Under the pieces are notes generated by a model. It was not told the origin of the DNA. It worked only from the letters and a program-made list of their open reading frames with translations, and ran no database searches. A program made the position numbers and the translations under genes. Shown piece by piece: positions 8,791 to 60,382 of a stretch of DNA of 64,000 nt. This DNA is from Callorhinchus milii (lineage: Eukaryota). The DNA is taken from assembly GCF_018977255.1 (NCBI RefSeq), contig NW_024704742.1:132868001-132932000 (forward strand). Reading direction: 5' to 3'. The stretch's first letter is position 1, and every line of letters begins with the position of its first letter.

Positions 8791-9339
8791 CGTCGCATGA
8801 ATAATAATAATAATCCTTGCATTTGATATAGCGCTTTTCACGTCGGGAGGACGTCCCAAAGCGCTTCACAGAACACACTGTAAAGTGAATTGACTGCATA
8901 TTTGTGGGCTAACGCGGCAGCCAATTGCGCACAGCAATGTCCCACAAACAGTCGTAGATTGAAAATGACCAATTTATTATTGGTTTTGGTTTTGGAGGGA
9001 TTATTATTGAAGGGGGCTATTTAAATGCAAGTTGTTGTGGTTGATAATGTTTGACGCATCTCTATTATACAAGGGAGGGGGCATCAGCAATATCTTGATA
9101 ACCTAACAATTTCCTTCTCAAGAATCCCGCCTGCCTTCGATTTTCAGGTAATTTTCAGAGTATCGGTTTAATATAATTCAGTCTGAGTTGAAGTATTTTC
9201 TTGTAATAATAACAGTAATAATCCTTGTATTTGGTACAGCGCTTTATCACGTGGTCAAGATGTCTCAAAGCGCTTCGCAGGCTTTATCGCAAAGTGTAGT
9301 GACTGTGTATTTTGTAGGTGAACTTCATTTTGGATTTTC

Positions 9340-15565: not shown

Positions 15566-15889
15566 AATAATAATAATAATAATCCTTGCATTTGATATAG
15601 TGCTTTTCACGTCGGGAGGACGTCCCAAAGCGCTTCACAGAACACACTGTAAAGTGAATTGACTGTATATTTGTGGGCGAACGCGGCAGCCAATTGCGCA
15701 CAGCAATGTCCCACAAACAGTCTTCGATTGAAAATGACCAATTTATTATTGTTTTTGGTTTTGGAGGGATTATTATTAGGCTCTGTGTGGAGTAAGGAAA
15801 CTTGCCCAAGGTTTCGCCCTCTGCCTGGAATTGAACTCAGGTCTCTCACTTGCAAAGCGAGTGCTCTAACCACTGAGCCACAGGACTCC
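15566..15889 (-). mobile_element. Young short-form tRNA(Ala-like) SINE
   Basis: Near-identical to the copies at 28973, 30608 and 49060; head ggagtcctgtggctcagtggttagagcactcgctttgcaag; long (ATT)n tail. Confidence 0.92.
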
Positions 15890-28174: not shown

Positions 28175-28404
28175 TCAAACGATCCCCGTGCCTGTGAGGT
28201 ACGTGCCAGCCTCCAACATCAGTGCCTTTGTGTAGACCACCAGGGTGTAGTAGAGGGTGAGGAAATCTTGCGTGCTGAAGATTGTGTCGGACAGTGCAAA
28301 CCCCAACATGGACGGAATAAACCCACGTCCGTACTCCACCATCCAGGTTCCTGAGCTCCAGCGAACGGACGTGGCCTCGCCCATGGAATGGACGATAGTG
28401 TCGC
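28175..28404 (-). CDS. SIGMAR1: SIGMAR1 exon 4 (last coding exon)
   Basis: ccgcag|GC GAC ACT: (G)[75 protein letters not shown], with the VEYGRG motif containing the ligand-binding Glu; stop TGA at 28175-28177. Confidence 0.97.
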
Positions 28405-30205: not shown

Positions 30206-30298
30206 CTGGATAAAATATTTCACTTTTAGTCGTCCCTTCTTTCCACTGCTGAAAGGTTCCCGATATAACAGTGTCAGACACTTCAGCCCAATACCGAC
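30206..30298 (-). CDS. SIGMAR1: SIGMAR1 exon 3 (93 bp, phase 1-1)
   Basis: catag|GT CGG TAT TGG...TAT CCA G|gtcagt: (G)[30 protein letters not shown](G); same boundaries as the human exon. Confidence 0.96.
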
Positions 30299-30607: not shown

Positions 30608-30923
30608 GGAGTCCTGTAGCTCAGTGGTTAGAGCACTCGCTTTGCAAGCGAGACACCTGGGTTCAATTCCAGGCAGAGGGCGAAACCTTGGGCAAGTTTC
30701 CTTACTCCACACAGAGCCTAATAATAATCCCTCCAAAAACAATAATAAATTGGTCATTTTCAATCTACGACTGTTTGTGGGACATTGTTGTGCGCAATTG
30801 GCTGCCACGTTCGCCCACAAATATACAGTCAATTCACTTTACAGTGTGTTCTGTGAAGCGCTTTGGGACATCCTCCGGACGTGAAAAGCGCTATATCAAA
30901 TGCAAGGATTATTATTATTATTA
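30608..30923 (+). mobile_element. Young short-form SINE in SIGMAR1 intron 2
   Basis: Same family as 15566-15889. Confidence 0.92.
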
Positions 30924-33005
30924 ATGTCCAGCTGAACAGGCAGAAAGGCACGAGACGTCTCACCTGAAGGACGGCAAGTCTAGCGATACAGCAAACACTG
31001 TATTGGAGCATTAGCCTAAAAACCAGATCTGAAAAGAACATGCTTTAATTATATTAAGTCCTGACATGGGACTTGAACTCGCGTCCCTTGAACATGCGTC
31101 ACTTGAACTAGGCAATTCTATCTCAGAGGCGAGAATGCTACCAACGTAGCCAGACTGACACAGAAGATCTTTCTTTTAAAAAATTAAGAACACTATCCAG
31201 TTATCAAGGATCCTTTATACGTGGGAAACGAGTTGCAGAGTTTTGTCCAGGTCTGGTACCTCCATCAGCTCAAACAGGACTGAAATAACCGAACAAATGA
31301 CAGTGGGAAGCAATGCATCAGGAAACGATGGAGCTGATTCAACAGTGTCAGTTTATAGACAAGACAGTTCACTTCATTTGGCAGTAAGTTATTTCCTGGC
31401 CAATCCTCTAAATACTTTAGTGGAACCTTAGTTTGACAAAACACCTGTCACACTTGCCTACATATCACTACACTTGGCAGCAATTACCTATGAATTGCTT
31501 TGACATATTTCAATGTTTTATAGGGTTACAAGCCATTTGGCCCAACTAGTCCATTCCGGTGTTTATACTCCATCCCTTCCAATCTCCCCTTTATGTATGC
31601 CTTATGTTTTCTCTTCAGTGACTGTTTGCACTGCACGGCAAGGGATATGGGGATAGGGCAGGTAAGTGGAAATAGGTTAGAAGATCAGCCATGATCGTAT
31701 TAAATGGTGGGGCAGGCTCGAGGGGCCGAATGGCCTACTCCTGCTCCTATGTCTTATGGTCTTAAATTCCCTATGGGATCTACCACTGACCACTTTATAT
31801 TTGTATAATATATACAAATGGAAATATATACAAATATATATACAAATATACAAATATATACAAATGCTCTATAAATGGAATCTTGTTGTCTTGTTGTTGT
31901 TGTTGTATCCTCTAATTTTGGACTCACTAACAAATGGAAACAGCTCATTAATGTCCACTTCATCAAATCCTTTTAGAATCTTAAATACCTCAATTATCTC
32001 CCCTCACAATCAACTCAACCTACATTTATAGAGAATCCTTCACATCAAGACATCTCAAAACTCAAAAGTCATAGCTATTTATGTGAAGCGTTTTCAATGA
32101 TAACCAAAATTATGATCGACAAGATAGTTCTTAAGATTGCAATATTAAACGTAAGGATTATTATAATGAGCACTCCTCGACTGATGCACAATTGCAGAAT
32201 GATAAACACAGGGCAGGGAAGAACAACAGCTTTTTTTNAATGCTAATAAGAGTTTTAATTTAATTAAGAATTCTGTCTGCTGGAGGCTGAGACAGTGCCA
32301 CCTTCTGATAGAGCTTCTTTGTCTCTGGAGAATAAGAGGAAACAGCAGATCCTGGCACCAGCAGAGTCTTTGGCAGGAAGTTAATTTGCATTGGAGATAA
32401 AGAGAGAGGAAACAAACAGCGTAGAAAGGGAATGATAGCCTGCAGAGAGGGAACCTGAAGTGAAGAGACCGATTCAAAGTATGTTAGCACGTTAACAACT
32501 TAACATTCTGTACATTGTACCTTTCACATAGGACGAATGTCTCAAAGCACAGGTGCTAAACAAAGACGTGGTCAAGTTTGTCGGAGGGGGGGTGTTGAAA
32601 GCAGGAAAAGATGAAGACATTTTGGAAGAATTACAACAACATTACTGGCATTTACTATATATAGTGCCTTTCATATGGGTTAGCGTCTCTGAAAGTGTGA
32701 ATTATTAATACTTTGTATACATAGATGTACACATGAGGGAGAAGGGAATAGAAGGCAGGGAGTAAGGAACTGATGGAGACTCATTGAGTATAAACACTGG
32801 CATAGACTTGTTGGGCCGAATGGCCCATTTCTGTGCTGTCCAGCACCCTGGGACGTTTTCCAGACGTGAAAGGCACTATACAAATGTAATTTTGTATTGT
32901 ATATTCTATGGGGGATTCACAACAACAAGTTGGATTTACATATAGTGCCTTTCAGGGAGTTCCAGGATTTGGGGCACAGCAGCTGATAGCTGAGCCATCG
33001 ATGGT
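30913..33005 (+). repeat. Left arm of a 2.09-kb near-identical inverted duplication (SIGMAR1 intron 2 sequence)
   Basis: Reverse complement of 41241-43331; the ORF track shows mirrored ORFs (31243-31431+ vs 42812-43000-, 32680-32883- vs 41363-41566+). Confidence 0.97.
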
Positions 33006-33374
33006 AGGAGATCGCATCAACCACGGCAACAAAATTACACTTGTGAAGTGCCTTTCACGTCGGGAGGACGTCCCAAGGTCCTGGACAGACAGAATTACGG
33101 ACCCGAGCTGTCGATAGTGGGGCGAGCGAGGCGGGGGACGCGAAGCGGGCTGGAGAACATATTAACGAGAGATCCAAGAAAAGTGTTGCCGCTCGGCATC
33201 TCATCGTGTGAAAAGCGCTGTATCAAATGCAAGGATTATTATCGTTGTGGTCATTATTATCCTCTCGCCCTCTGTGGACGCACTGGGGATGAAGACACGA
33301 GAGCTGATTACTCTTATTTACAGGGGGGGAAAAAAAAACTTAACGGCAGTGGAAACACTTTGTCGCTGCTTTAC

Positions 33375-33420
33375 CGCTGGGGTGGAAGGACTGAAGCAGA
33401 TCGGTGACCTGCGGCTCCAT
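33375..33420 (-). CDS. GALT: GALT exon 1 coding part (MEPQVTDLLQSFHPS+G), on the opposite strand to the rest of GALT in this assembly
   Basis: gagccATGGAG...CCCAGCG|gtaaag: strong Kozak and a phase-1 donor that joins exon 2 to give ...[20 protein letters not shown] box lies about 55 bp upstream, and the exon is head-to-head with SIGMAR1 exon 1. Confidence 0.85.
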
Positions 33421-34743
33421 GGCTCTCCTCGCTCTGACTCCAGGCTCGGGGCTGATTCATTCACTCCAGGCTATTGGCTGCTCAGTCCCGTGAAACATCA
33501 TCTGATGCAAAACAAAACAACTCCACTGGTTGCATTTCATTTTCATTCTTGACAGCATTTACGTACATAGAGAGAGAGAGAGACACACACACACACAAAT
33601 AAATAGAGCAAAGCAAGGTCATTGCATGGCTTTTATTCGCTTCTCTCTAAATGTTCGCCTGGAGATTCTGTTCAGAGAGATTTCTTAATGTATCTTCAGA
33701 CCGACTGTATTAACTGTACCCTTGAAACCCTGTCGCCATCGATAAGTCCGTGTTTTAAGATTGGTTCCATTATTATAGGCATGTTTTCTTTCTTACTTAT
33801 TGTGTCGGGGCATATAATCCACCCCCCCACCCCATCCCTCCCTCCCCACCCCCACCCAAAGCCTAAAGTCTGTTATAATAATTCTTACACGTGTTATCGC
33901 GTCTTCCGCACGGGGAGGACGTCTCAGAGCGCTTGGCGGGATATGCTGAAAGGCGAATCGAGGCCGTGTCCCCACAAACAGCGACCAAATTATTATTATT
34001 ATTATTATTATTTTTCGTGGGGGAAGGAACTATTATCCCCAGTAAAGCGCTGCACGGATCGACTAACAACCGGGTTCCCGCTCTCGCCGCCGGGTAAACA
34101 GAGGCGGGTGGAGTAAGGGGACGTGTCTGAGGTCCCGCCCGCCCGCCCGCCCGCGGGACGTCCTCTCGCTCGCGAGCCGAGCGCTCCAACCACTAAGGCG
34201 CCCAATTGCGAAGCTCCACGATATCACCGGATCACCCCGGTCCCCATTGCAACCCCCGTGTCATCCCCAACCCCATATTTTCCCCATCCCCCCCCCACCC
34301 CATATGTCATGTCAAGTCATGTCATCTCATCCCCACGTGACCCCCCCCCCCTTGAGCACCATCGCCTCTGCTCTGCCCTCTCAACACCGCTCAGCAGCCA
34401 ACGAGGTGGCCAACCACCGCAGGGCGAGCAGCCGGTCGGCCCGTTCAGCGGCCGCGCTCTCAACCGAACGCAGTGGGGGAGGCGGGACCAGGGCAACGTC
34501 CGCCGGGCGTCGATTGGTGCAGCGGCGGCGGCCGCGACTGCCGATTGGCGGACAGCGGCGGTCAGTCAGTCTCAGTCGGTCAGTCGATTCGCTCGGTCAA
34601 GTGGGAGGGGCGGGGCCGTCAGGTTAGGTTGACGCGAGCGCGTGCGGACGGCGGCGGCTCGAGCTGAGGCCGAGAGCAGCGGAGAATCCCGGGGTGTGGG
34701 GCCGAGGCGAGGCCGCTGTTGCCCGGGGGTGGGCGTGGGGGCG
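33421..34743. promoter_or_regulatory. Head-to-head GALT/SIGMAR1 promoter region with CpG island (about 34050-34880)
   Basis: 1323 bp between divergent ATGs; dense CpG; ATTGG (CCAAT) boxes near 33472, 34513 and 34544; GC box ggggcggggc near 34607. Confidence 0.8.
33873..34196 (-). mobile_element. Long-form SINE embedded in the promoter, GC-shifted
   Basis: Retains cgactaacaaccgggttcc, ggtaaacagaggcg, tggagtaagg and cctctcgctcgcgag...gctccaaccact. Confidence 0.8.
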
Positions 34744-34879
34744 ATGGCGCTGCTGGTCCGGGCCCTCGCTGGGGCCTGTGCGGCGGCGCTCGCGGTGCTG
34801 CTGATCCGCTTCTGGCTGAGCAGCAAACACTACGTGATGAGCGGCACCGAGGTGGCCGGACTGGCGAAACAGTATGCAG
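34744..34879 (+). CDS. SIGMAR1: SIGMAR1 exon 1 (N-terminal transmembrane helix)
   Basis: gcgATGGCG...: MALLVRALAGACAAALAVLLIRFWLSSKHYVMSGTEVAGLAKQYA(G)|gtaact; hydrophobic segment plus the conserved LAKQYAG; lies in a CpG island. Confidence 0.93.
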
Positions 34880-34905
34880 GTAACTGGGGGCTGAGGGGTG
34901 GCCTT

Positions 34906-36846
34906 CCCCCACTGACCGACCCCCTCCCTCCCCCCCACTGACCGACCCCCTCCCTCCCCCCACTGACCGACCCCCTCCCTCCCCCCACTGACCGACCCCC
35001 TCCCCCCCCCACTGACCGACCCCCCCTCCCCCCCACTGACCGACCCCCCCCCCCCCACTGACCGACCCCCTCCCTCCCCCCCACTGACCGACCCCCTCCC
35101 ACTGACCGACCCCCTCCCACTGACCGACCCCTCCCTCCCCCCCACTGACCGACCCCCTCCCCCCCCACTGACCGACCCCCTCCCACTGACCGACCCCCTC
35201 CCACTGACCGACCCCCTCCCTCCCCCCCACTGACCGACCTCCTCCCCCCCCCCACTGACCGACCCCTCCCTCCCCCACTGACCGCCCCCCCCCCACTGGG
35301 ACCCTGCCCCCCCCCCTCCACTGGGACCCTGCCCCCCCCCCACTGGGACCTGCCCCCCCCCCACTGGACCCTGCCCCCCCCCCCACTGGGACCCTGCCCC
35401 ACTGGGACCCGCCCCCCCCCCACTGGACCGCTGCCCCCCCCCACTGGGACTGCCCCCCCCACTGGGACCCTGCCCCCCCCCACTGGGACCCTGCCCCCCC
35501 CCCCACTGGGACCCTGCCCCCCCCTTGCCCACTGGGACCCTTCCCCCCCCACTGGGACCCTGCCCCCCCCCACTGGGACCCTGCCCCCCCACTGGGACCC
35601 TGCCCCCCCCTTCCCACTGGGACCCTCCCCCCCCCCACTGGACCCTGCCCCCCCCCCACTGGGACCCCTCCCCCCCCCCCCCACTGGACCCCTGCCCCCC
35701 CACTGGGACCCTGCCCCCCCCCACTGGGACCTGCCCCCCCACTGGGACCCTGCCCCCCCCGGGACCCTGCCCCCCCCCACTGGGACCCGCCCCCCCCCCA
35801 CTGGGACCCTGCCCCCCCCCCACTGGACCTGCCCCCCCCCCCCCCACTGGGACCGCCCCCCCCCCCACTGGGACCCTGCCCCCCCCCACTGGGACCCTGC
35901 CCCCCCCCCCACTGGGACCCCTGCCCCCCCCCCCACTGGGACCCTGCCCCCCCCCCTGGGACCCCCTGCCCCCCCACTGGGACCCTGCCCCCCCCCCCAC
36001 TGGGACCCTGCCCCCCCCCCCACTGGGACCCTGCCCCCCCCCCACTGGGACCCTGCCCCTCCCCCCCCCACTGGGACCTGCCCCCCCCCCCCCCACTGGA
36101 CCCTCCCACTGTGCCCCCCCCCCCCCACTGGACCTGCCCCCCCACTGGGACCCCCCCCCCCCCCCCTGGACCCTGCCCCCCCACTGGGACCTGCCCCCCC
36201 CACTGGGACCCTGCCCCCCCCCCCACTGGGCCCTGCCCCCCCCCCCCCCCATGGGACCCCCCCCCCCACTGGGCCCCCCACTGTGGCCCCCCCCCACTGT
36301 GGCCCCCCCACTGTGGCCCCCCCCCCACTGTGGCCCCCCCCCCACTGGGCCCCCCCCCCGTGCCCCCCCCCCCCCCACTGGTGCCCCCCCCCCACTGTGC
36401 CCCCCCCCCACTGTGCCCCCCCCCTGTGCCCCCCCCCCCCACTGTGCCCCCACCTGTGCCCCCCCACTGTGCCCCCCCCCACTGTGCCCCCCCCACTGTG
36501 GCCCCCCCCCCCCACTGTGGCCCCCCCCCCCACTGTGGCCCCCCCCCACTGTGGCCCCCCCCCCCCACTGTGGCCCCCCCCACTGTGGCCCCCCCCACTG
36601 TGCCCCCCCCCCACTGTGGCCCCCCCCCCCCACTGTGGCCCCCCCACTGTGCCCCCCCCCCCCACTGTGCCCCCCCCCCACTGTGCCCCCCCCCCCACTG
36701 TGCCCCCCCACTGTGCCCCCCCCTGTGCCCCCCCCCCACTGTGCCCCCCCCCCATCCCCCCCCCTGTGCCCCCCCCCCTCTGTGGCCCCCCCCCCCCCAC
36801 TGTGCCCCCCCCCACTGTGGCCCCCCCCCCCACTGTGGCCCCCCAC
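34906..36846. repeat. C-rich minisatellite in SIGMAR1 intron 1: Cn-ACTGACCGA, then Cn-ACTGGGACCCTG, then Cn-ACTGTG(G)
   Basis: About 1.9 kb of poly-C runs with a near-invariant CCACTG anchor; the G-rich minus strand gives the Gly-rich pseudo-ORFs. Confidence 0.97.
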
Positions 36847-37479
36847 AGTAACTGACCCCCTCCTCTCCCCCTTCTCTTCCCCCCCTCCCACACACACACA
36901 CACTAACCCTAACTGGGAGCTCGGAGTATTAATAATAATAATCCTTGTATTTGATGTCGCGCTTTATCACGTCGTTGAGACGTCTCAAAGCGCTTCACAG
37001 GATTTACTGTAAAGTGAATTGACTATAATTTTGTGCGCAATTACAGTCATAAATGATGATAAATTGTTCACTTCAATCCACGACTGTTTGTGGGAAACCA
37101 CTGCGCGCAATTGGCTGCTGCGTTTCGCCCACAACTATACAATCAATTCACTGCAGTATATTCTGTGAAGCGCGTTTAGGACGTCTCGATGACGTGATAA
37201 AGTGCTATATCAAATGCAGGGATGATTATTATTATAATAGAGTTGGCTCCCAGAAGGGTAAGACTGTAGCAGTCGCTAACAAATACACAGTCACTCCACT
37301 TTACACTGAATCCTGTGAAGCACTTTGGGACGTTCTCCTGACGTGAAAGGCGCTCTGCAAAATGCAAGAATTCATTAATTTTGTGTAATACCAGAATACT
37401 TGCATTTGATATAGTACCTTAATGCGCTGTGGAGAAATCTCTCGAGATTTCAGTCTGAACTGTTGTTTGTGACTGTTTG

Positions 37480-38040
37480 CTCACCCCTCGTCAGCCTTCC
37501 CAGCTATTGCTTCCACAAGCTGCAGATCATGCAGAACTCTGCAACGAGTGTCCTCTCCTGCACCAGGCTCTGTGACCCGATCACCCCCGTCCTCACCCGG
37601 CTCCACTGGCTCCCCCTCCCCCAGAGGATTGAGTTCAAAGTATTCATCCTCTCCTTCAAAGCCCTCCACGGCCTTGTTCCTCCCTACCTCTGTGACCTGC
37701 TATCTCCAGAGAGACCAGTCCGCTTCCTCCGCTCAGCGGACTCCGGGCTGCTCCATGTACCCCACCCAGCCCGCTCTCCCATCGGCGATCAGGCCTTCAG
37801 CCTCTCTGCCCCCACCCTCTAGAACTCCATCCCCCAGTCCCTTCGCTTTGATCTGTCCCTTACCTCCTTCGAGGCTCCTCTCAAGTCCTTCTTCAACTAC
37901 ATCTTTGGTCACCCTCCTACCCCTTCACTCCATCCTTCCTGGTCCCAATCTCCAGTTCGGGTTCAAATCCCTGAACTGTCCAGCGCTTTGCAATATCCTC
38001 CTGACAAGAAAGATGCTATAAAATGTAATTTGTTGTTGAC
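37480..38040 (+). mobile_element. L2 LINE 3' fragment
   Basis: LQIMQNSA...LHWLPLPQRIEFKVFILSFKALHGLVPPYLCDLL; (TTG)n tail. Confidence 0.88.
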
Positions 38041-38304
38041 TAGCGCCCTGGGATCTTTAAGACCCCTGTTTTCCCTTCTGTTTGCATGCCTCCACACTCT
38101 TTGTTGCCTTAAATTCAATGTATGTACTTGCTGTATTACCCAGTCAAAAGCCATCCTGAAAAATTCCAAGTGTTTTATGTCAACTTGTGGAGGGAAGCTT
38201 GTGTATAATAATAATAATAATAACTTGCATTTGATATTGCGCATTATCATGTATTCGAGACATCTCAAAGTGCTTCACAGGATGTACCGTGAAATGTAGT
38301 GACC

Positions 38305-39105
38305 GAGCCACAAGACCACGGTTCTCCTGATTGGCTCCTGTCAGCGCCTTCTCACCTCAGGCGCTGACAGCATCACCATCCATGGTTGCACCCTCCACCT
38401 CGCTAAGCCAGTCCAGAACCTTGGGTCTTGTTTGACCCTCAACTATCCTTTCTACCCCACATCTGCCCCATGACCCGCTCTGCCTTCCCCCACCTCCGCA
38501 ATGTTGCCCGGCTCCGACAACTCACACTACAGGCCGCTGAAACACTCATACACGCCTTCATTACATCGAGGCTCGACTATGCAAACTCACTGCTTGTCGG
38601 CCTCCCCAACTCCTCTGTGCATAGGCTGCAGATCATCCAGAACTCTGCAGCCCATGTCCTCTCCCGCACCAGGCTCCGCGACCTTATCATCCCTATCCAC
38701 GCCCAACTCCACTGGCTTCCCATCACACAGAGGATACAATTCAAGATCCTGGTCCTCACCTTCAAAGCCCTCCATGGTCTTGCTCCCCACTACTTCTCTG
38801 ACCTCCTAACCTGCTATCACCCTGTTTGCTCCCTCCGCTCAGCGGGCTCTGGCCTGCTTCACTTCCCCCACCTTGCTCGCCCGACTATCGGCGGGTGGGC
38901 TTTCTGCCACTCTGCATCCACCCTCTGGAAGTCCATCCCCCAGTCCCTCCGTCTCGCCCCCTCCCTCGCCACCTTCAAGACCGTCCTCTTCGACCGTGCT
39001 TTCGATCTCCCTGCTTCCCCGGCCCCCTCCCCCAACCTTACCCTTAGCTCAGGTCCGTAACTGTCTGTCCAGCGCCTTGGGATGTATGTAATGTAATTTT
39101 GTTGT
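38305..39105 (+). mobile_element. L2 LINE ORF2 C-terminal fragment
   Basis: ORF 38428-39060: FDPQLSFLPHI...HAFITSRLDYANSLL...LHWLPITQRIQFKILVLTFKALHGLAP. Confidence 0.9.
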
Positions 39106-40883
39106 ATGTTTTTGTGGGCGAAACGCAGCAGCCAATTGCACAGTAGTGTCCCACAAACAATTGTGGAGCGAGCGACCAAATTTACTTGGGGGATTATCGG
39201 CCAGGACACAGGGAGTGAGAGAGAGAGTATAATCTTGTCAGTAAGACTGAGGTGACATTGAGTAGAATGAGATATGTGACAATGGTTTGAGATGTGGCAG
39301 ATGTTAAATGCCACACTCGCAGCCTCAAGGTGTGATCAGTCTTCTTTTCATAACTTTCCGTGATGACTGCATTGTGCAGCTCTGTGAAGCCATAATTGGT
39401 AACGTTCCTCATGCAACATTCATTGGGTGTTGAGTGTGCTGAATTGGCTGCAATGCTTCCATAGTTTGTGGTGCGTTTAATAGATTGTAACAGCCCCCAA
39501 GGTTTAGACTGGGCATAATAGGCTGCAGCATCCCCGGGGTTTAGAATTTGTTAGACATTCTGTAACACGCCCAGAGTTTAAAATTTGCTTTATACCCAGT
39601 ATTATACCCTGTTTTTAGCGATATGCTATCAAGGTCTTTGATGCACCTGTTGCACAGACTGTAGTTAATAATAATCCTTGCGTTTGATATAGCCCCTTAT
39701 AATAATTATAATAATCCTTGCATTTGATATAGTGCCTTATCACATCTTTGAGATGTCTCAAAGCGCTTCACAGAATATATTGTGAGGAGTGACAGTGTAT
39801 TTTGTGGGTGAAACAGGGTAGCCAGTTGCACACAGCAGTGTCCCACAAACAGTCGTGGATTGAGTAACAATTTTTTTTAGAGGGATTATTACCCCAGAAA
39901 GCGATCAACCAATCAACTAACAGTGGAGCAAGGAAATCTGCTTAATATACTCAAGGTTTCCAGTGATTTCCAGGAGTGCAAGAGCAAAACTCAGGTCTTT
40001 AGTTAGTCAATAAAACCGGAGGGTCATGTTGAAACCATCAATAACAGTGTCATTTCTAATATGAGTGGTTTCTGAATTTACGTGTGTACTATATGTGTGT
40101 TATACACGTACAGTGTATGTCTGTTCCACTCCCCCTGAAAGCCGCTGTCATCACACACCACCTCAAAAAAACCCACCCTCGATCCCTCTAATCTCTCACA
40201 CTACCATCCCAACCTTCCCTTCCTTGCCAAAGTCCTGGAACGCATCGTTGCAGGTCAACTTCGGTCACACGTCCACTCCCTCCTCGAGCCCCTGCAGTCT
40301 GGTTTTCGCCCTGCCCACAGCATAGAGACAGCGCTTGTTAAAGTCACAAACGAATAGTACATAATACATCTGGACTTTTTTTTGCCGAGTCATCAAATTA
40401 GAGGCCAGAGAACACAAATGACTTCATCTTTTAGCAACTTCATCCTGTGGAACCTTGAAGTTCTATGTTGAAGAGAATCTCACTGAATGTTGTAGCGTGG
40501 AAACAGGACATTCAGCCCAACTCATCTGTAAGGCTATTTATATTCTACATGAATTTCCAGACTTCAGCAGTTTCCCCAGGGCACACTGGACTCTCCCCAA
40601 GCCAGCTAACCTTGCTAACCTGCACCTAATATTTTCCGATATCAGGTGAGCAGGATGCATCTCTTGGGAGAAAGGCACCCATACATACTACAGTGTATAG
40701 GTACTCACAAAGAGCCGGGATTAGGATTAGAGTAGTTAGCTCCAGTGAATGAGCGAGCACCAGTTCAGGTTTGTTGGGCCGAACAGCCTGTTGGTTGGTG
40801 TATTGCATGGGATTCTGTATGCACAGGTGGAAACGGTAATGGTGGAGTCTTAAGTATGGCCATTATCACACCGTGTATTTCAG

Positions 40884-41084
40884 GTCTGGATCACGAGCAG
40901 GCGTTCACAAAGGTGGTGGTGGAGCTGAGAAAGAAGTACCCCGGCCACATTCTCCCTGACGAGGACCTGCAGTGGATCTTTGTCAACGCTGGGGGGTGGA
41001 TGGGCTCCATGTGCCTCCTACACGCGTCCTTGACTGAATACGTGCTGCTCTTCGGGACCGCGGTGGATACCGGGGGGCATTCAG
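40884..41084 (+). CDS. SIGMAR1: SIGMAR1 exon 2 (201 bp, phase 1-1)
   Basis: tttcag|GT CTG GAT CAC...CAT TCA G|gtacag: (G)[66 protein letters not shown]. The four exons sum to 660 nt = 219 aa plus stop. Confidence 0.97.
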
Positions 41085-41240
41085 GTACAGTTTGATTCTT
41101 TACAGAGCCGCGCTCGCTACACATAATCAGGCACTACACTTTATAGTGCATCCATGAAGCACATTGAGATGCTTCCATGTCCCAATGAGGTGCAGTATTA
41201 AATACAAGGATGATCTTCACATCCTCATCCCATCCACTCC

Positions 41241-43331
41241 ACCATCGATGGCTCAGCTATCAGCTGCTGTGCCCCAAATCCTGGAACTCCCTGAAAGGCA
41301 CTATATGTAAATCCAACTTGTTGTTGTGAATCCCCCATAGAATATACAATACAAAATTACATTTGTATAGTGCCTTTCACGTCTGGAAAACGTCCCAGGG
41401 TGCTGGACAGCACAGAAATGGGCCATTCGGCCCAACAAGTCTATGCCAGTGTTTATACTCAATGAGTCTCCATCAGTTCCTTACTCCCTGCCTTCTATTC
41501 CCTTCTCCCTCATGTGTACATCTATGTATACAAAGTATTAATAATTCACACTTTCAGAGACGCTAACCCATATGAAAGGCACTATATATAGTAAATGCCA
41601 GTAATGTTGTTGTAATTCTTCCAAAATGTCTTCATCTTTTCCTGCTTTCAACACCCCCCCTCCGACAAACTTGACCACGTCTTTGTTTAGCACCTGTGCT
41701 TTGAGACATTCGTCCTATGTGAAAGGTACAATGTACAGAATGTTAAGTTGTTAACGTGCTAACATACTTTGAATCGGTCTCTTCACTTCAGGTTCCCTCT
41801 CTGCAGGCTATCATTCCCTTTCTACGCTGTTTGTTTCCTCTCTCTTTATCTCCAATGCAAATTAACTTCCTGCCAAAGACTCTGCTGGTGCCAGGATCTG
41901 CTGTTTCCTCTTATTCTCCAGAGACAAAGAAGCTCTATCAGAAGGTGGCACTGTCTCAGCCTCCAGCAGACAGAATTCTTAATTAAATTAAAACTCTTAT
42001 TAGCATTAAAAAAAAAGCTGTTGTTCTTCCCTGCCCTGTGTTTATCATTCTGCAATTGTGCATCAGTCGAGGAGTGCTCATTATAATAATCCTTACGTTT
42101 AATATTGCAATCTTAAGAACTATCTTGTCGATCATAATTTTGGTTATCATTGAAAACGCTTCACATAAATAGCTATGACTTTTGAGTTTTGAGATGTCTT
42201 GATGTGAAGGATTCTCTATAAATGTAGGTTGAGTTGATTGTGAGGGGAGATAATTGAGGTATTTAAGATTCTAAAAGGATTTGATGAAGTGGACATTAAT
42301 GAGCTGTTTCCATTTGTTAGTGAGTCCAAAATTAGAGGATACAACAACAACAACAAGACAACAAGATTCCATTTATAGAGCATTTGTATATATTTGTATA
42401 TTTGTATATATATTTGTATATATTTCCATTTGTATATATTATACAAATATAAAGTGGTCAGTGGTAGATCCATAGGGAATTTAAGACCATAAGACATAGG
42501 AGCAGGAGTAGGCCATTCGGCCCTCGAGCCTGCCCCACCATTTAATACGATCGGCTGATCTTCTAACCTATTTCCACTTACCTGCCCTATCCTCATATCC
42601 CTTGCCGTGCAGTGCAAACAGTCACTGAAGAGAAAACATAAGGCATACATAAAGGGGAGATTGGAAGGGATGGAGTATAAACACCGGAATGGACTAGTTG
42701 GGCCAAATGGCTTGTAACCCTATAAAACATTGAAATATGTCAAAGCAATTCATAGGTAATTGCTGCCAAGTGTAGTGATATGTAGGCAAGTGTGACAGGT
42801 GTTTTGTCAAACTAAGGTTCCACTAAAGTATTTAGAGGATTGGCCAGGAAATAACTTACTGCCAAATGAAGTGAACTGTCTTGTCTATAAACTGACACTG
42901 TTGAATCAGCTCCATCGTTTCCTGATGCATTGCTTCCCACTGTCATTTGTTCGGTTATTTCAGTCCTGTTTGAGCTGATGGAGGTACCAGACCTGGACAA
43001 AAACTCTGCAACTCGTTTCCCACGTATAAAGGATCCTTGATAACTGGATAGTGTTCTTAATTTTTTAAAAGAAAGATCTTCTGTGTCAGTCTGGCTACGT
43101 TGGTAGCATTCTCGCCTCTGAGATAGAATTGCCTAGTTCAAGTGACGCATGTTCAAGGGACGCGAGTTCAAGTCCCATGTCAGGACTTAATATAATTAAA
43201 GCATGTTCTTTTCAGATCTGGTTTTTAGGCTAATGCTCCAATACAGTGTTTGCTGTATCGCTAGACTTGCCGTCCTTCAGGTGAGACGTCTCGTGCCTTT
43301 CTGCCTGTTCAGCTGGACATTAATAATAATA
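41241..43331 (-). repeat. Right arm of the inverted duplication, ending in a SINE (TTA)n tail at the assembly gap
   Basis: Reverse complement of 30913-33005; followed by 25 N. Confidence 0.97.
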
Positions 43332-43356
43332 NNNNNNNNNNNNNNNNNNNNNNNNN
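43332..43356. other. Assembly gap (25 N)
   Basis: Run of n. Confidence 1.
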
Positions 43357-43615
43357 GTCAACGCTGGGGGGTGGATGGGCTCCATGTGCCTCCTACACGC
43401 GTCCTTGACTGAATACGTGCTGCTCTTCGGGACCGCGGTGGATACCGGGGGGCATTCAGGTACAGTTTGATTCTTTACAGAGCCGCGCTCGCTACACATA
43501 ATCAGGCACTACACTTTATAGTGCATCCATGAAGCACATTGAGATGCTTCCATGTCCCAATGAGGTGCAGTATTAAATACAAGGATGATCTTCACATCCT
43601 CATCCCATCCACTCC
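43357..43615 (+). other. SIGMAR1: Second copy of 40982-41240 (3' half of SIGMAR1 exon 2 plus the start of intron 2) immediately after the N gap
   Basis: Apparently identical 259-bp repeat at offset 2375; it diverges from the first copy exactly after ...catccactcc. Confidence 0.95.
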
Positions 43616-44661
43616 GTTACTTTTGATCCCTTCGCTGCCTTGAGTCTTCTCCGCCCGCTCAAGTCCTTTTGCATGTTGCAAAATTGTAACCCGTTTGGGC
43701 TCTGAATCGCTTTGATCTTTCCCTTTTGCAACTTAACTTTTGCGGTCACTGATTTCTTCTTTCGTTTCGCCAATGCAGGAAGGACTCTCACATCGCGTCT
43801 TGTGTGTGTGTGTGGGGGTGGGGGAGGGTATTTGTGCTGCCCTCTGTTGGTGTGATTTCTTGTTCACTGATGCTATCGACGAATCACTAAAGTATTTTTT
43901 TAAACAAAATAATAACACCTGCATCCGATAATAATAATAATAATTATCCTTTGTTTGATATAGCGCGTTGTCACATCGTTGGCAGAATATATGTAACGTG
44001 AATTGACGTCCATGCAGTGAATGACCAATTTTATTTGAGACCAGACGATGGAGGTCACTGCGAGGGAGCAATTCGCTTCCCCTTCTGAATAGTGCCACAG
44101 GATCTTTAATGTCCACGTGCACAGGTAGATGCGACATTTATTTAACTTTGGCCCTCTCTTATCGGCCTTCAAAGGATTCCTGAAAACCTACCATTTTGAC
44201 CGTGCCCATAGTCACTCTCCCCCCCACTATCCCCCACGCTTAGTGCCCAGCACTCTGTGTAAAGTGCTTTGAGACGTTAACTCTGCATGAACGTTTTTCT
44301 AACTAGGAATGATGACAAGGAGCGTAGCCTTTTGTAATGGCACAAATTATCAGATCGAATGGTTAACTGAACTTGGCTGTGCTCCCAGCATGTGTGCGCG
44401 TGTGTATGTCTGTGCGTCTCCGGGTGTGTGTGTGACTGTGTTTTGATGCCTATGCGTACCATTTTGTGTGTGTGCAGGTGACATCCAGTCGTATGTGCGT
44501 GACTTTAATAATAATCCTTGCATTTGATACAGCGCCTTATCATGTCATTGAGACGTCTCAAAGCTCTTCACAGACTATATTACAAAGTGGTTTGAATGTG
44601 CATGTAGTTACGTAAGGTGGCAGGTAATTGCGCACAGCAGTGTTCAACATACAATCATAGA

Positions 44662-45590
44662 TTATTATGGAATCATCGAATTATACAGCACAGAAGGAGG
44701 CCAATCGGCCCATCGTGTCTGTGCCGGCTTTTTGAAAAGAACTATCCAAAACAATCCCACTCCCCCACTATCACCCCATAGCCCTGCAAACTTGTCCTCC
44801 CCAAATAATTATCTACTTCTCTCTTAAAAGTTGTTATCGAATCGGCTTCCACCATCCTTTCAGGCAATGCAGTCCAGATCTGAACAACTCGCTGTGTGAA
44901 AAAAATTTCTCTTCACCTCCACTCTGTTTCTTTTAACAACCATTACCGACCCACCCGCCAGTGGGAATAATTTCTCTTTGTTCACCCTCATAATTTTGAA
45001 AATTTCTATTAAGTCTCCTCTTAACCTTCTCTGCTCCAAGAATAATCCTAGCTTCTCTAGCCTCTGCTGATAACTGAAGTTCCTCATTCCTGGTACCAAT
45101 CCTGGTAAATCTCGTTTGCAACAACAACAACAACAACTTGGATTTATATAGCGCCCTCCACGGCGGACGGCGTCACAGAGCACTTTGCACCCTTATCATG
45201 GAATCATCGAATTATACAGCGCAGAAGGAGGCCATTCGGCCCATCGTGTCTGTGCCGGCTCTTTGAAAAGAGCTGTCCAAATCAATTCCACTCCCCCACT
45301 ATCTCCCCATTGCCCTGCAAACTTGTTCTCCCCTCCAATGCAATGCCTTGACATCCTTCCTAAAGTGTGGTGCCCAGAACTCACCACAGTCTCTCGCTGA
45401 GGCCTAACCAGTGTTTTATAAAGGTTCATCATAACTTCCTGACTTTTGTATTCTATGCCCTTATTTACAAAGCCTAGTATCCCATACGCTTTTTTAACAG
45501 CTTTATCTACCTGTCCTGCCACCTTCAAAGATTTACTTATCTGAATCCCCAGGTCTCTCTGTTCCTTCACCCCCTTTACGATTGTACTAC
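44662..45590 (-). mobile_element. Two CR1 LINE 3' fragments
   Basis: EQRDLGIQISKSLKVAGQVDKAVKKAYGILGF...LYKTLVRPQ and LEQRRLRGDLIEIFKIM; 3' UTR atgggccgaatggcctccttctg...ttccat. Further CR1 tails near 24140-24350, 51210-51470, 61530-61850 and 62450-62600. Confidence 0.88.
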
Positions 45591-45939
45591 CTAGATTGAG
45601 TGATCAATTTTTTTAAGGATTTATTACCCCCGGAAAGTGATCTATCAATTGACTAACAACCAGGTAAGCAGAAGTGTGTGGAGTAAGGGAACTTGCAAGA
45701 TTTCACCCTACCCGTGGATCGAACCTGAGTCCTCTCGCTTATAAGGCGAGCGGCTAAGCACTATGCGAACGGATTCCCAAGACTACGCTATAGGCCTTTG
45801 TGTGTTTCTTTGTGTGAGTGTTTGTGGTATGTGTCTTCCATGTACAGAAAATTCTTGTCATGGCGGTGAGTCTATTTCTAGCTTCCGAGGTAAAGAGAAC
45901 TTCTGCCACAAAGTGGTTTACCCGGTCCGGATTGTGTTC

Positions 45940-46290
45940 TCCCCCCTACCTCTGTGATCTCCTAACCCCCTACCATCCTGCTTGCTCCCTCCGCTCAGCG
46001 GGCTCCGGCCTCTTTCACGTCCCCCGTCTCGCTCGCCCCACTATTGGCCTTCTGCCACTCTGCCCCCACCTTCTAGAACTCCATCCCACAGTCCCTCCGC
46101 CTCGTCCCTTCACTTGCCTCCTTCAAGACCCATCGCAAGACCCTCCTCTGCGACCGTGCTTTCAATCTTCCTGCTTCCCCCCCCTGCTCTCCACCCTCCC
46201 CTATCCCCACCTCGGGCTCGAAACTCTGTCCAGTGCCTTGGGATGTCCTACAACGTGAAAGGTGCTATACAAATGTAATTTTGTTGTTGT
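45940..46290 (+). mobile_element. L2 LINE 3' end just upstream of GALT exon 2
   Basis: PPYLCDLLTPYHPACSLRSAGSG motif; tail cgtgaaaggtgctatacaaatgtaa(ttg)n. Confidence 0.85.
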
Positions 46291-46349
46291 TCTTGTTGCA
46301 CTCCCTTCCCAGGAGGAGGACACACCGCACTTTACAGTTTTATGCCTGA

Positions 46350-46622
<273 letters not shown>

Positions 46623-46925
46623 TGAGACCTGAATAGGCAGAGATTGAAGATCCCGTGGCTCTATTCGAAAAGAGAAGGGAGTTTCTCCCAATGTCCTAGA
46701 CAACAATCCCCCAGATAAAACCGGTACCATATCTCCTTTTGCCCTCTGAAGCCTCCTCAGTATTTTTGAGCCACCTATTTCCCTGCTTGATCTTTACCAC
46801 TCTATTTTTGAGTAATTCTTTATCGATGCAAGGTTTTGTAATAAGAAAAGCAACAATGCTTACAATTGGTAAAGTTGGTAAAGTGTCTTTTGTGTTGGGA
46901 GGAAGTGCTCTGAGATGTAACCCCA

Positions 46926-47339: not shown

Positions 47340-47415
47340 GTGAACCCAGATTATGACAGTACCTACATCTTCAGTAATGATTTCCCAAGTCTGCAGCCTG
47401 ATGCCCCAGAACCAG
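47340..47415 (+). CDS. GALT: GALT exon 3 (76 bp)
   Basis: ttaaag|GTG AAC CCA...CCA G|gtacgt: VNPDYDSTYIFSNDFPSLQPDAPEP(G). Confidence 0.96.
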
Positions 47416-48211
47416 GTACGTCTAACTCTGCTCTACGCAGTCAGTCCACAGCAGCTGTTCACACAATACTGCACAATTTACACTTATACAGCGCCTTTCA
47501 ATGTCTTGACACTGTTGGCTGGGTCCCAAGAACAGCCATGTGAGGGATGGAAAAGATATATTAATAATAATAATAATTCTTGCATTTGATATAGCGCTTT
47601 TCACGTCCTCTAGTCATCTCAAAGCGCTTCACAGAATATACTGTAAAGCGGATTACATAGGAACAGGAGGAGGCCATTCAGCCCTTCGAGCCTGTTCTGC
47701 CGTTTAATTAGATCATGGCTGATATGTACCTCAACTAATAAGAATTGACTGTATATTTGTGAGCAAAATGCAAATATACAGTCAATTAATTCACTGTATA
47801 TTTGAATTGACTGTATTCAAATATACGTTTGTGATATTTGTGATCGAAGGCGCGGTCACAGAGATGGAAATTGAAGGAAGTGAGGGAGGGAGCGAGTTGG
47901 GAGGGACTCCGGGATAGAATTCCAGAGAGCAAGGGAATATCTCAAAGGTTTCACAGAGTTTTTCTGTACAGTGGTAGTGTGTGTTGGATTTCTATATATG
48001 ATGGACACCTTGCTGACCAAAGCAAATACTGAGATCGACTACCTCAGCCCAGATTGGGAGGGGAACCTACAACTCTCTGTCCGTGTGAGCTTTACCCATT
48101 TAGGTAATCGAGCGAGTGAAGTTCTGGGAAGTTAAAGACTGATTTAAACTCTTTTCCTTGGGAATCACTGTCCACTATGTAAATGGTGAAAACTTTCCTT
48201 TGAACATGTAG

Positions 48212-48260
48212 GTCCCAGCGAACATCCACTGCTGCAAGCAAGAGTTGCCAGAGGAGTTTG
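48212..48260 (+). CDS. GALT: GALT exon 4 (49 bp)
   Basis: atgtag|GT CCC AGC GAA CAT CCA...GTT TG|gtaaat: (G)PSEHPLLQARVARGV(C). Confidence 0.93.
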
Positions 48261-48773: not shown

Positions 48774-48971
<198 letters not shown>

Positions 48972-50727: not shown

Positions 50728-50784
50728 ATTTTTGAGAACAAAGGAGCTATGATGGGCTGCTCAAATCCACACCCTCACTGTCAG
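50728..50784 (+). CDS. GALT: GALT exon 6 (57 bp; catalytic His-Pro-His)
   Basis: ttccag|ATT TTT GAG AAC...TGT CAG|gtagga: IFENKGAMMGCSNPHPHCQ. Confidence 0.97.
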
Positions 50785-60259: not shown

Positions 60260-60382
60260 GTGTGGGCGAGCTCCTTTCTTCCCAACGAGCCCAGGATGGC
60301 TGACCGCACTCAGAGGGAGTATTTTGGGAACCAGGGGATGCCCCTGCTGCTGGACTACGCCAATTTGGAGGCTCAGAAGAAG
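60260..60382 (+). CDS. GALT: GALT exon 7 (123 bp); remaining exons not found in the window
   Basis: tttcag|GTG TGG GCG AGC...AAG AAG|gtcctg: VWASSFLPNEPRMADRTQREYFGNQGMPLLLDYANLEAQKK. Confidence 0.94.

Follow-up and report, generated by a model that had tools for sequence, protein, structure and literature searches.

In the window analysed here, a stretch of 64,000 nucleotides from contig NW_024704742.1 of Callorhinchus milii, the genes SIGMAR1 and GALT are each divided between the two strands. The question that this raises is whether the sequenced animal carried an inversion of the segment holding both gene starts, or whether this segment was turned round during assembly. No contig listed for three public samples bridges the reversed join of B-end with D described below, and we therefore take the arrangement for a likely assembly error and not for a true inversion: the block was probably cut and flipped in silico, and a gap was then overfilled.

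The stretch splits into a left flank A (ending at 33005), a block B (33006-41240) and a right flank D (starting at 43616). With rc for reverse complement, its relevant features are as follows.

28175-28404, minus strand: SIGMAR1 exon 4, coding part and stop, in flank A; 100% to P0121, AG acceptor
30206-30298, minus strand: SIGMAR1 exon 3, in flank A; AG/GT boundaries
30913-33005: end of flank A, within SIGMAR1 intron 2; copied in reverse at 41241-43331
33005/33006: junction of A with B-start; blunt, N-free
33006-41240: block B, 8,235 bp; orientation opposite to the gene-intact order
33375-33420, minus strand: coding part of GALT exon 1 (15 codons and a further base), with a GT donor; 100% to P0123 residues 1-15
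34006-34879: GC-/CpG-rich stretch that separates the starts of the two divergent genes; in the four bins of 250 bp that begin at 34006, GC is 0.63-0.73 and CpG o/e 0.57-1.2
34744-34879, plus strand: SIGMAR1 exon 1, coding part
34906-36844: C-rich minisatellite in SIGMAR1 intron 1; successive units of about 25, 21 and 16 bp
40884-41084, plus strand: SIGMAR1 exon 2
41240/41241: junction of B-end with rc(A), the ancestral join, within SIGMAR1 intron 2
41241-43331: reverse copy of A, 2,091 bp; stops at the gap
43332-43356: assembly gap, 25 N
43357-43615, plus strand: second copy of B-end (40982-41240), 259 bp, exact; covers the final 103 nt of SIGMAR1 exon 2
43615/43616: junction of B-end with D; blunt, N-free, unbridged by the listed contigs in all three DNA-type runs
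46423-46592, 47340-47415, 48212-48260, 48800-48929, 50728-50784 and 60260-60382, plus strand: GALT exons 2-7, in flank D

A sequence-only reading of this DNA had reported the three junctions and the division of both genes between the strands (SIGMAR1 exons 1-2 plus, exons 3-4 minus; GALT exon 1 minus, exons 2-7 plus). The junctions were confirmed in the sequence at 33005/33006, 41240/41241 and 43615/43616, and the exon translations match P0121 and P0123. When joined, the four SIGMAR1 coding exons translate exactly into P0121 (219 aa) and GALT exons 1-7 into exactly the first 217 aa of P0123; the exons of both genes are 100% identical to C. milii proteins, and the records of the species include full-length SIGMAR1 (P0121) and GALT (P0123, P0244). 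Intact copies of both genes require the order A-rc(B)-D, in which they lie head to head. As the same reading had maintained, B is therefore reversed relative to the gene-intact order, its cuts are reciprocal and base-exact, and the join of B-end with rc(A) is the ancestral one. The vertebrate SIGMAR1-GALT neighbour pair is broken in the text of the window and restored by A-rc(B)-D. The human genes are arranged head to head as well. The pair has adjacent locus tags in Acipenser sinensis (FKN15_026595/026596) and in Phoxinus (R3I94_020228/020229), and galt and sigmar1 are given as neighbours in the spotted gar in a published account (PMC8042750). Judged from its sequence, the region 34006-34879 is likely to be the shared promoter of the two genes, and the adjoining minisatellite (34906-36844) is likely to be hard to map with short reads. 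An Rfam scan of the window returned nine tRNA-like matches, none of them at the cuts.

The window contains the 25-N run and a single N at 32238, inside the end of flank A, and none at 33005/33006 or 43615/43616. The segment 41241-43331 matches the reverse complement of 30913-33005 at 99.57% over 2,100 columns (BLAST), and 43357-43615 is 100% identical to 40982-41240 over 259 bp. Both of these extra junction copies are overhangs on the two sides of the N run (43332-43356): the reverse copy of A ends, and the copy of B-end begins, exactly there. The two duplicates are the longest self-matches of the window at an identity of at least 95%, which rules out chance. An overfilled gap is expected to leave a near-identical duplicate of the true neighbour abutting the N run, and this is what we found (2,091 bp, 99.6%, ending at 43331); the reverse copy is likely a read-derived extension into the gap. 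Such a history is also expected to leave gap characters at both ends of the flipped block, and these are absent. A true inversion, for its part, predicts two reciprocal novel junctions that are base-exact at matching bases, and the assembly text does contain them. The two copies of A are set apart by one substitution, five indel events and the N site, none of which lies within 767 bp of the junction. Their ratio of substitutions to indel events (1:5) departs from that of the public samples against the window (15:3, a tally that leaves out three substitution rows and one indel row inside repeats; Fisher p = 0.007), so that the differences between the copies look like consensus errors, although this spectrum cannot separate an artefact from an inversion if both copies are unphased consensus.

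The join of B-end with D was compared with contigs from public samples. Four of the 24 contig runs were set against window positions 43357-46700, three of DNA type (X1, X2 and X3, from samples S1-S3) and one of RNA type (X6). None of the 24 pieces listed for X1-X3 bridges 43615/43616, and thus no listed contig crosses this novel join in any of the three DNA-type samples, whose contig depth is low (4.9-11.2) and whose contigs drop rare variants. In X1, X2 and X3, the contig that matches 43357-43615 runs on for 126, 121 and 126 letters unlike the window, and the contig that matches from exactly 43616 is preceded by 51, 51 and 15 other letters, respectively. In length, these overhangs fit the predicted neighbours rc(A) and B-start: a multi-copy repeat is entered after about 115 bp in rc(A) and after about 11-23 bp in B-start, and a k=31 graph would break there. 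The contigs of all three samples depart from the scaffold exactly at 43615/43616, and it is in overhang length that they agree with the path of the extension. The fourth junction predicted by the sequence-only reading is indirectly borne out, in that the D-side match begins at exactly 43616 in all three DNA-type runs; since other letters stand before it, D is preceded by a base other than the C that ends the B-end copy, as would be expected of a blunt flip. That reading had also proposed a heterozygous inversion with both alleles captured in one assembly. The three samples gave this proposal no support, as no bridging contig was found at 43615/43616 among the pieces listed for them, and an overfilled gap beside a block placed in the wrong orientation would account for the layout too.

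All three samples differ from the window at 43525, 45863 and 46472, and S1-S3 appear to be animals other than that of the window; a private allele in the latter would therefore be compatible with their contigs. The six haplotypes bound the frequency of an inverted allele loosely, at about 39% (at 95%), even assuming perfect detection. Word sharing (15/19 in X1 and X2) was set aside as evidence, because an extra T behind 43525 also removes words. In the RNA-type run, a 788-nt contig departs from the window at the SIGMAR1 exon 2 donor and continues for 384 letters without matching GALT exon 2; these letters fit SIGMAR1 exon 3 plus the coding part of exon 4 (323 nt) and a further 61 nt. The cover of X6 at 43615/43616 is zero, and its GALT contig begins 17 nt into exon 2, so that it does not bear on the first exon of GALT. 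The Pfam families of SIGMAR1 and GALT share no row among 120 of 344 and 120 of 312 listed, a weak check, as the C. milii members are listed without any transcript-contig source.

How could a block be flipped in silico? A contig would have been broken on either side of a segment that few short reads support, one made up of a GC/CpG-rich region and the 1.9-kb C-rich satellite, and the piece would have been re-joined the wrong way round. The proximity-ligation scaffolder HiRise is described as breaking contigs at each end of low-support segments longer than 1,000 bp and as making orientation errors at a higher rate (PMC4772016). In layout, the window resembles the error described there, in which blunt, reciprocal cuts fall in unique DNA and the orientation is inferred afterwards, but HiRise-type joins normally carry gaps and those at 33005/33006 and 43615/43616 carry none. 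Scaffolders in general leave Ns at joins, and that both false joins are N-free counts against an in-silico flip, which does not explain it; the gap characters would have been lost by a mechanism that is purely supposed. A later break would fall 259 bp inside B, near the false join of B with D. Gap filling would then carry the left piece along true reads over these 259 bp and on into rc(A) for 2,091 bp, fail to meet the right piece and leave 25 N; the PBJelly placeholder is exactly 25 N. In the PBJelly paper, a gap is defined as at least 25 N, and inversions and mis-joins are the suspected causes of overfilled gaps (PMC3504050); the occurrence of overfilled gaps at mis-joins and inversions is likewise described in two papers (PMC3504050, PMC9635638). 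The likeness to an overfilled gap as portrayed there is again one of layout: a flank is extended with its true neighbour, duplicates nearby DNA and misses the other flank, and an N run remains. Unlike such a gap, the right piece here opens with the 259-bp copy of B-end joined N-free to D, and the left false join lacks N. A gap filler given only ancestral reads would, moreover, extend D into rc(B-start) and not into B-end, which argues against overfilling.

The alternative that the sequenced animal was heterozygous for a rare germline inversion, and that the assembler mixed both haplotypes, is in our view unlikely, if still to be taken seriously. It would require a blunt double-strand break in SIGMAR1 intron 2 and another in GALT intron 1, both repaired by end joining without loss. 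Heterozygous balanced inversions formed by blunt non-homologous end joining have reciprocal, homology-free junctions, and both alleles can show as mixed contig ends. The two reciprocal N-free joins agree with this, the contig ends would fit a mixed walk through an inversion bubble, and it counts against an artefact that a true heterozygous inversion in an overlap graph also gives the walk A-B-rc(A) and a contig starting with B-end joined to D. Viability would need just one intact copy of each gene, and the human disorders of both genes are recessive. However, half-depth reads are expected over both inverted joins, and at the directly tested one (43615/43616) the listed contigs of all three samples have none. 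Loss and homology are zero at both joins, as an in-silico flip gives and as is uncommon in natural events; two conserved genes would have been broken at once; and the differences between the copies of A look like errors more than like alleles, although unphased consensus would blur alleles. If the arrangement is an artefact, it shows that reciprocal, base-exact joins alone are no proof of a real inversion.

The absence from other samples and the N-free joins would also be accounted for if both inverted joins came from the source DNA, either through an inversion present as a somatic mosaic or through a chimeric library molecule or a few of them. We consider this very unlikely, as a single molecule must carry both joins over 8.2 kb, and joins that lack support are usually trimmed during read correction. 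Chimeras from restriction and ligation at GATC and RAG-type inversion were rejected, since the cuts lie away from GATC sites and no CAC heptamer start adjoins them, as was a missed-adapter read, which would give a palindrome unlike the layout here (PMC3504050). It is scarcely credible that the shared promoter block is inverted as a common polymorphism or in a regulated (flip-flop) manner. Both exon swaps are in frame (phase 1 to phase 1) and their products would be translatable, but the phases would agree by chance in roughly one case out of three. The cuts are blunt and reciprocal and lack homology, inverted repeats and recombination sites (within 60 bp, no inverted match exceeds a 9-mer, which is out of register), on which ground inversion mediated by repeats (NAHR) or by a recombinase was rejected; in addition, the inverted join at 43615/43616 occurs in none of the contigs listed for the three samples, and the RNA-type contig does not link SIGMAR1 exon 2 to GALT exon 2.

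If the block was flipped in silico, as we think probable, the locus offers a practical warning, since a public gene model matches the arrangement; for work on synteny, promoters or read mapping at SIGMAR1/GALT, the order to rely on is A-rc(B)-D. It is doubtful that the sequenced animal had the promoter block cleanly inverted over 8,235 bp, with the front ends of both genes swapped in frame. Were this true, one event would have created two reciprocal fusion genes, with the loss of two housekeeping genes on one haplotype, and two divergently transcribed genes would have exchanged exons reciprocally, in nature and in a single step; judged by titles, no description of a SIGMAR1/GALT rearrangement was found in the literature searched. 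One product would consist of SIGMAR1 exons 1-2, with the N-terminal membrane anchor, followed by GALT exons 2 onward, and its reading frame is open through GALT exon 7. The other would join the 15-residue GALT leader to SIGMAR1 exons 3-4. The translation of the latter is identical to RefSeq XP_042187874.1, a GALT-SIGMAR1 chimera (GALT exon 1 plus SIGMAR1 exons 3-4) that is labelled SIGMAR1 and is obtainable only from the arrangement in the window.

The three junctions proposed in the sequence-only reading, namely 33005/33006 (end of the left flank, A, to the start of the block, B), 41240/41241 (end of B to the reverse complement of A, rc(A)) and 43615/43616 (end of B to the start of the right flank, D), were checked in the sequence and found at exactly these positions. 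The interpretation attached to them, a heterozygous inversion of the shared SIGMAR1/GALT promoter block, is only partly supported, and the genome probably does not carry the rearrangement. Block B has a length of 8,235 bp. The Ns of the window consist of one run of 25 (43332-43356) and a single N (32238), and self-comparison of the window showed that both longest self-matches of at least 95% identity abut the 25-N run:

30913-33005 to 41241-43331, reverse: end of A, repeated in reverse (self-match, 99.57% identity)
40982-41240 to 43357-43615, direct: end of B, repeated exactly (self-match)

The single N sits in a T run of A, and nine Ts are present at the same site in the reverse copy; it may reflect either an earlier joining of contigs or uncertainty in calling the homopolymer.

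SIGMAR1 exon 2 matches solved sigma-1 receptors and is 100% identical to the Callorhinchus milii SIGMAR1 protein P0002. The translation of the four SIGMAR1 exons, two on the + strand inside B and two on the - strand inside A, is exactly the 219-aa protein P0121, and GALT exon 1 (-, inside B) together with exons 2-7 (+, in D) encodes residues 1-217 of P0123 (363 aa) without a mismatch. Both genes are collinear only under the order A-rc(B)-D, in which their starts diverge from a GC/CpG-rich stretch. Full-length C. milii proteins are on record with the UniRef accessions V9LBC6, V9L0H1 and A0A4W3HLJ5, of which we take the V9 entries to derive from cDNA and the A0A4W3 entry from a genome-based model. 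RefSeq models can contain bases missing from an assembly, and their full-length entries are therefore no proof of a second, intact locus. Consecutive locus tags for SIGMAR1 and GALT are found in other vertebrate records, and a published study also places the two genes side by side in spotted gar (PMC8042750).

The SIGMAR1 cluster has three members, including XP_042187874.1 (P0122, 122 aa). This entry, a predicted gene model labelled SIGMAR1, consists of GALT exon 1 (33375-33420, -) spliced to SIGMAR1 exons 3-4 (30206-30298 and 28175-28404, both -). Its sequence can be obtained only from the arrangement joining A to the start of B, and the public annotation was therefore built on DNA with that join. 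Another model uses a different GALT start:

44109-44124, + strand: alternative GALT first exon in D, with a GT donor, used by XP_007901314.1 (P0243)

Should this exon be genuine, block B might be dispensable for starting GALT.

Twenty-four public runs were listed, all as contigs, and five contain part of 43500-43720. Four of the 24 were compared against 43357-46700: X1-X3 (samples S1-S3), whose library type is not on record and which cover introns, and X6, RNA by guess. Each of the runs X1-X3 contains a contig that agrees with 43357-43615 and then continues for 126, 121 or 126 letters unlike the window, and another that begins to match exactly at 43616, preceded by 51, 51 or 15 other letters. 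None of the 24 contigs listed for X1-X3 bridges 43615/43616, at a contig depth of 4.9-11.2 and with contigs dropping rare variants, which speaks against the claim that both alleles of an inversion had been captured. An allele joining B-end to D would, in a k-mer graph, introduce a branch point at the join that ends both contigs; one joining A to B-start would likewise interrupt the path through B-end, provided that the overhang is rc(A). Judged by their lengths, the contigs instead extend to about the start of a multi-copy repeat in rc(A) and in B-start. The D-side match reaches no further than 43616, so the base before it must be something other than the C found there in the copy of B-end; this fits a blunt flip in which nothing was lost. 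The X6 contig departs at the SIGMAR1 exon 2 donor and runs for 384 further letters without being placed on GALT exon 2, and the flanks of this contig agree with normal SIGMAR1 mRNA. Furthermore, X1-X3 all differ from the window at 43525 (an extra T, absent from both window copies of B-end) and at 45863 and 46472 (two G-to-T changes), the latter being a third codon position of GALT exon 2 at which X6 differs too. Thus, S1-S3 appear to be other animals, or the window contains errors; its bases at these sites are either private alleles or uncorrected errors.

We consider it probable that the arrangement arose in assembly, when software severed a poorly mappable segment at either end and reversed it. 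Block B, presumably with low support, would have been re-joined in the wrong orientation; it contains the GC-rich stretch that is likely the promoter, together with a C-rich satellite of 1.9 kb:

34906-36844: C-rich minisatellite in SIGMAR1 intron 1, unit shifting along the array from about 25 to 21 and then 16 bp

The opposite strand of this array consists of many successive G runs, which makes G-quadruplex potential likely. A published scaffolder is described as cutting low-support segments >1,000 bp and making more orientation errors (PMC4772016). If the sequence was subsequently broken 259 bp into B and long reads then extended it along the true path, the result would be a direct copy of 259 bp, a reverse copy of 2,091 bp and the N run. 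Duplicate copies with an N run, as at 43332-43356, are the pattern described for overfilled gaps in PMC3504050 and PMC9635638. An artefact of this kind would belong to a known class of assembly error; a literature search of freely accessible papers listed no title on this rearrangement.

The weak point of a software flip is that neither false join carries Ns. A private heterozygous inversion would account for both N-free joins and predicts the same three contig ends, and we regard it as unlikely, though worth weighing. As a real allele, the inversion would swap the front ends of SIGMAR1 and GALT in frame, since the introns at both junctions have phase 1, but such a match is expected in about one in three cases by chance alone. 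N-free joins would equally follow if a mosaic or chimeric molecule had supplied the inverted joins, which we hold to be very improbable, and a common or regulated inversion seems more improbable still.

Both cuts are blunt, with no in-register shared base. The ends of B have a 4-nt inverted match offset by one base, and within 60 bp of the cuts no inverted match exceeds a 9-nt repeat fragment, which is out of register. These cuts are not what homologous recombination, a recombinase, RAG-type joining or GATC ligation would be expected to leave. Over the 767 bp nearest the junction, the reverse copy of A shows no difference; beyond, it has one substitution, five indel events and the N site, as against 15 substitutions and three indels between samples and window (three and one rows in repeats dropped; Fisher p = 0.007). 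At one differing site, a repeat copy at 47711 agrees with A against the reverse copy. These differences look like a thinning read consensus and do not separate the readings, because an unphased consensus hides alleles.

Other repeats in the window comprise:

nine sites between 6098 and 59415: tRNA-like matches (Rfam scan)
8800-9008 and 15569-15777, direct: 209-bp pair (self-match, 97% identity)

The tRNA-like sites inspected lie inside copies of a dispersed repeat and are likely heads of a tRNA-derived SINE, of which the 209-bp pair likely represents young copies.
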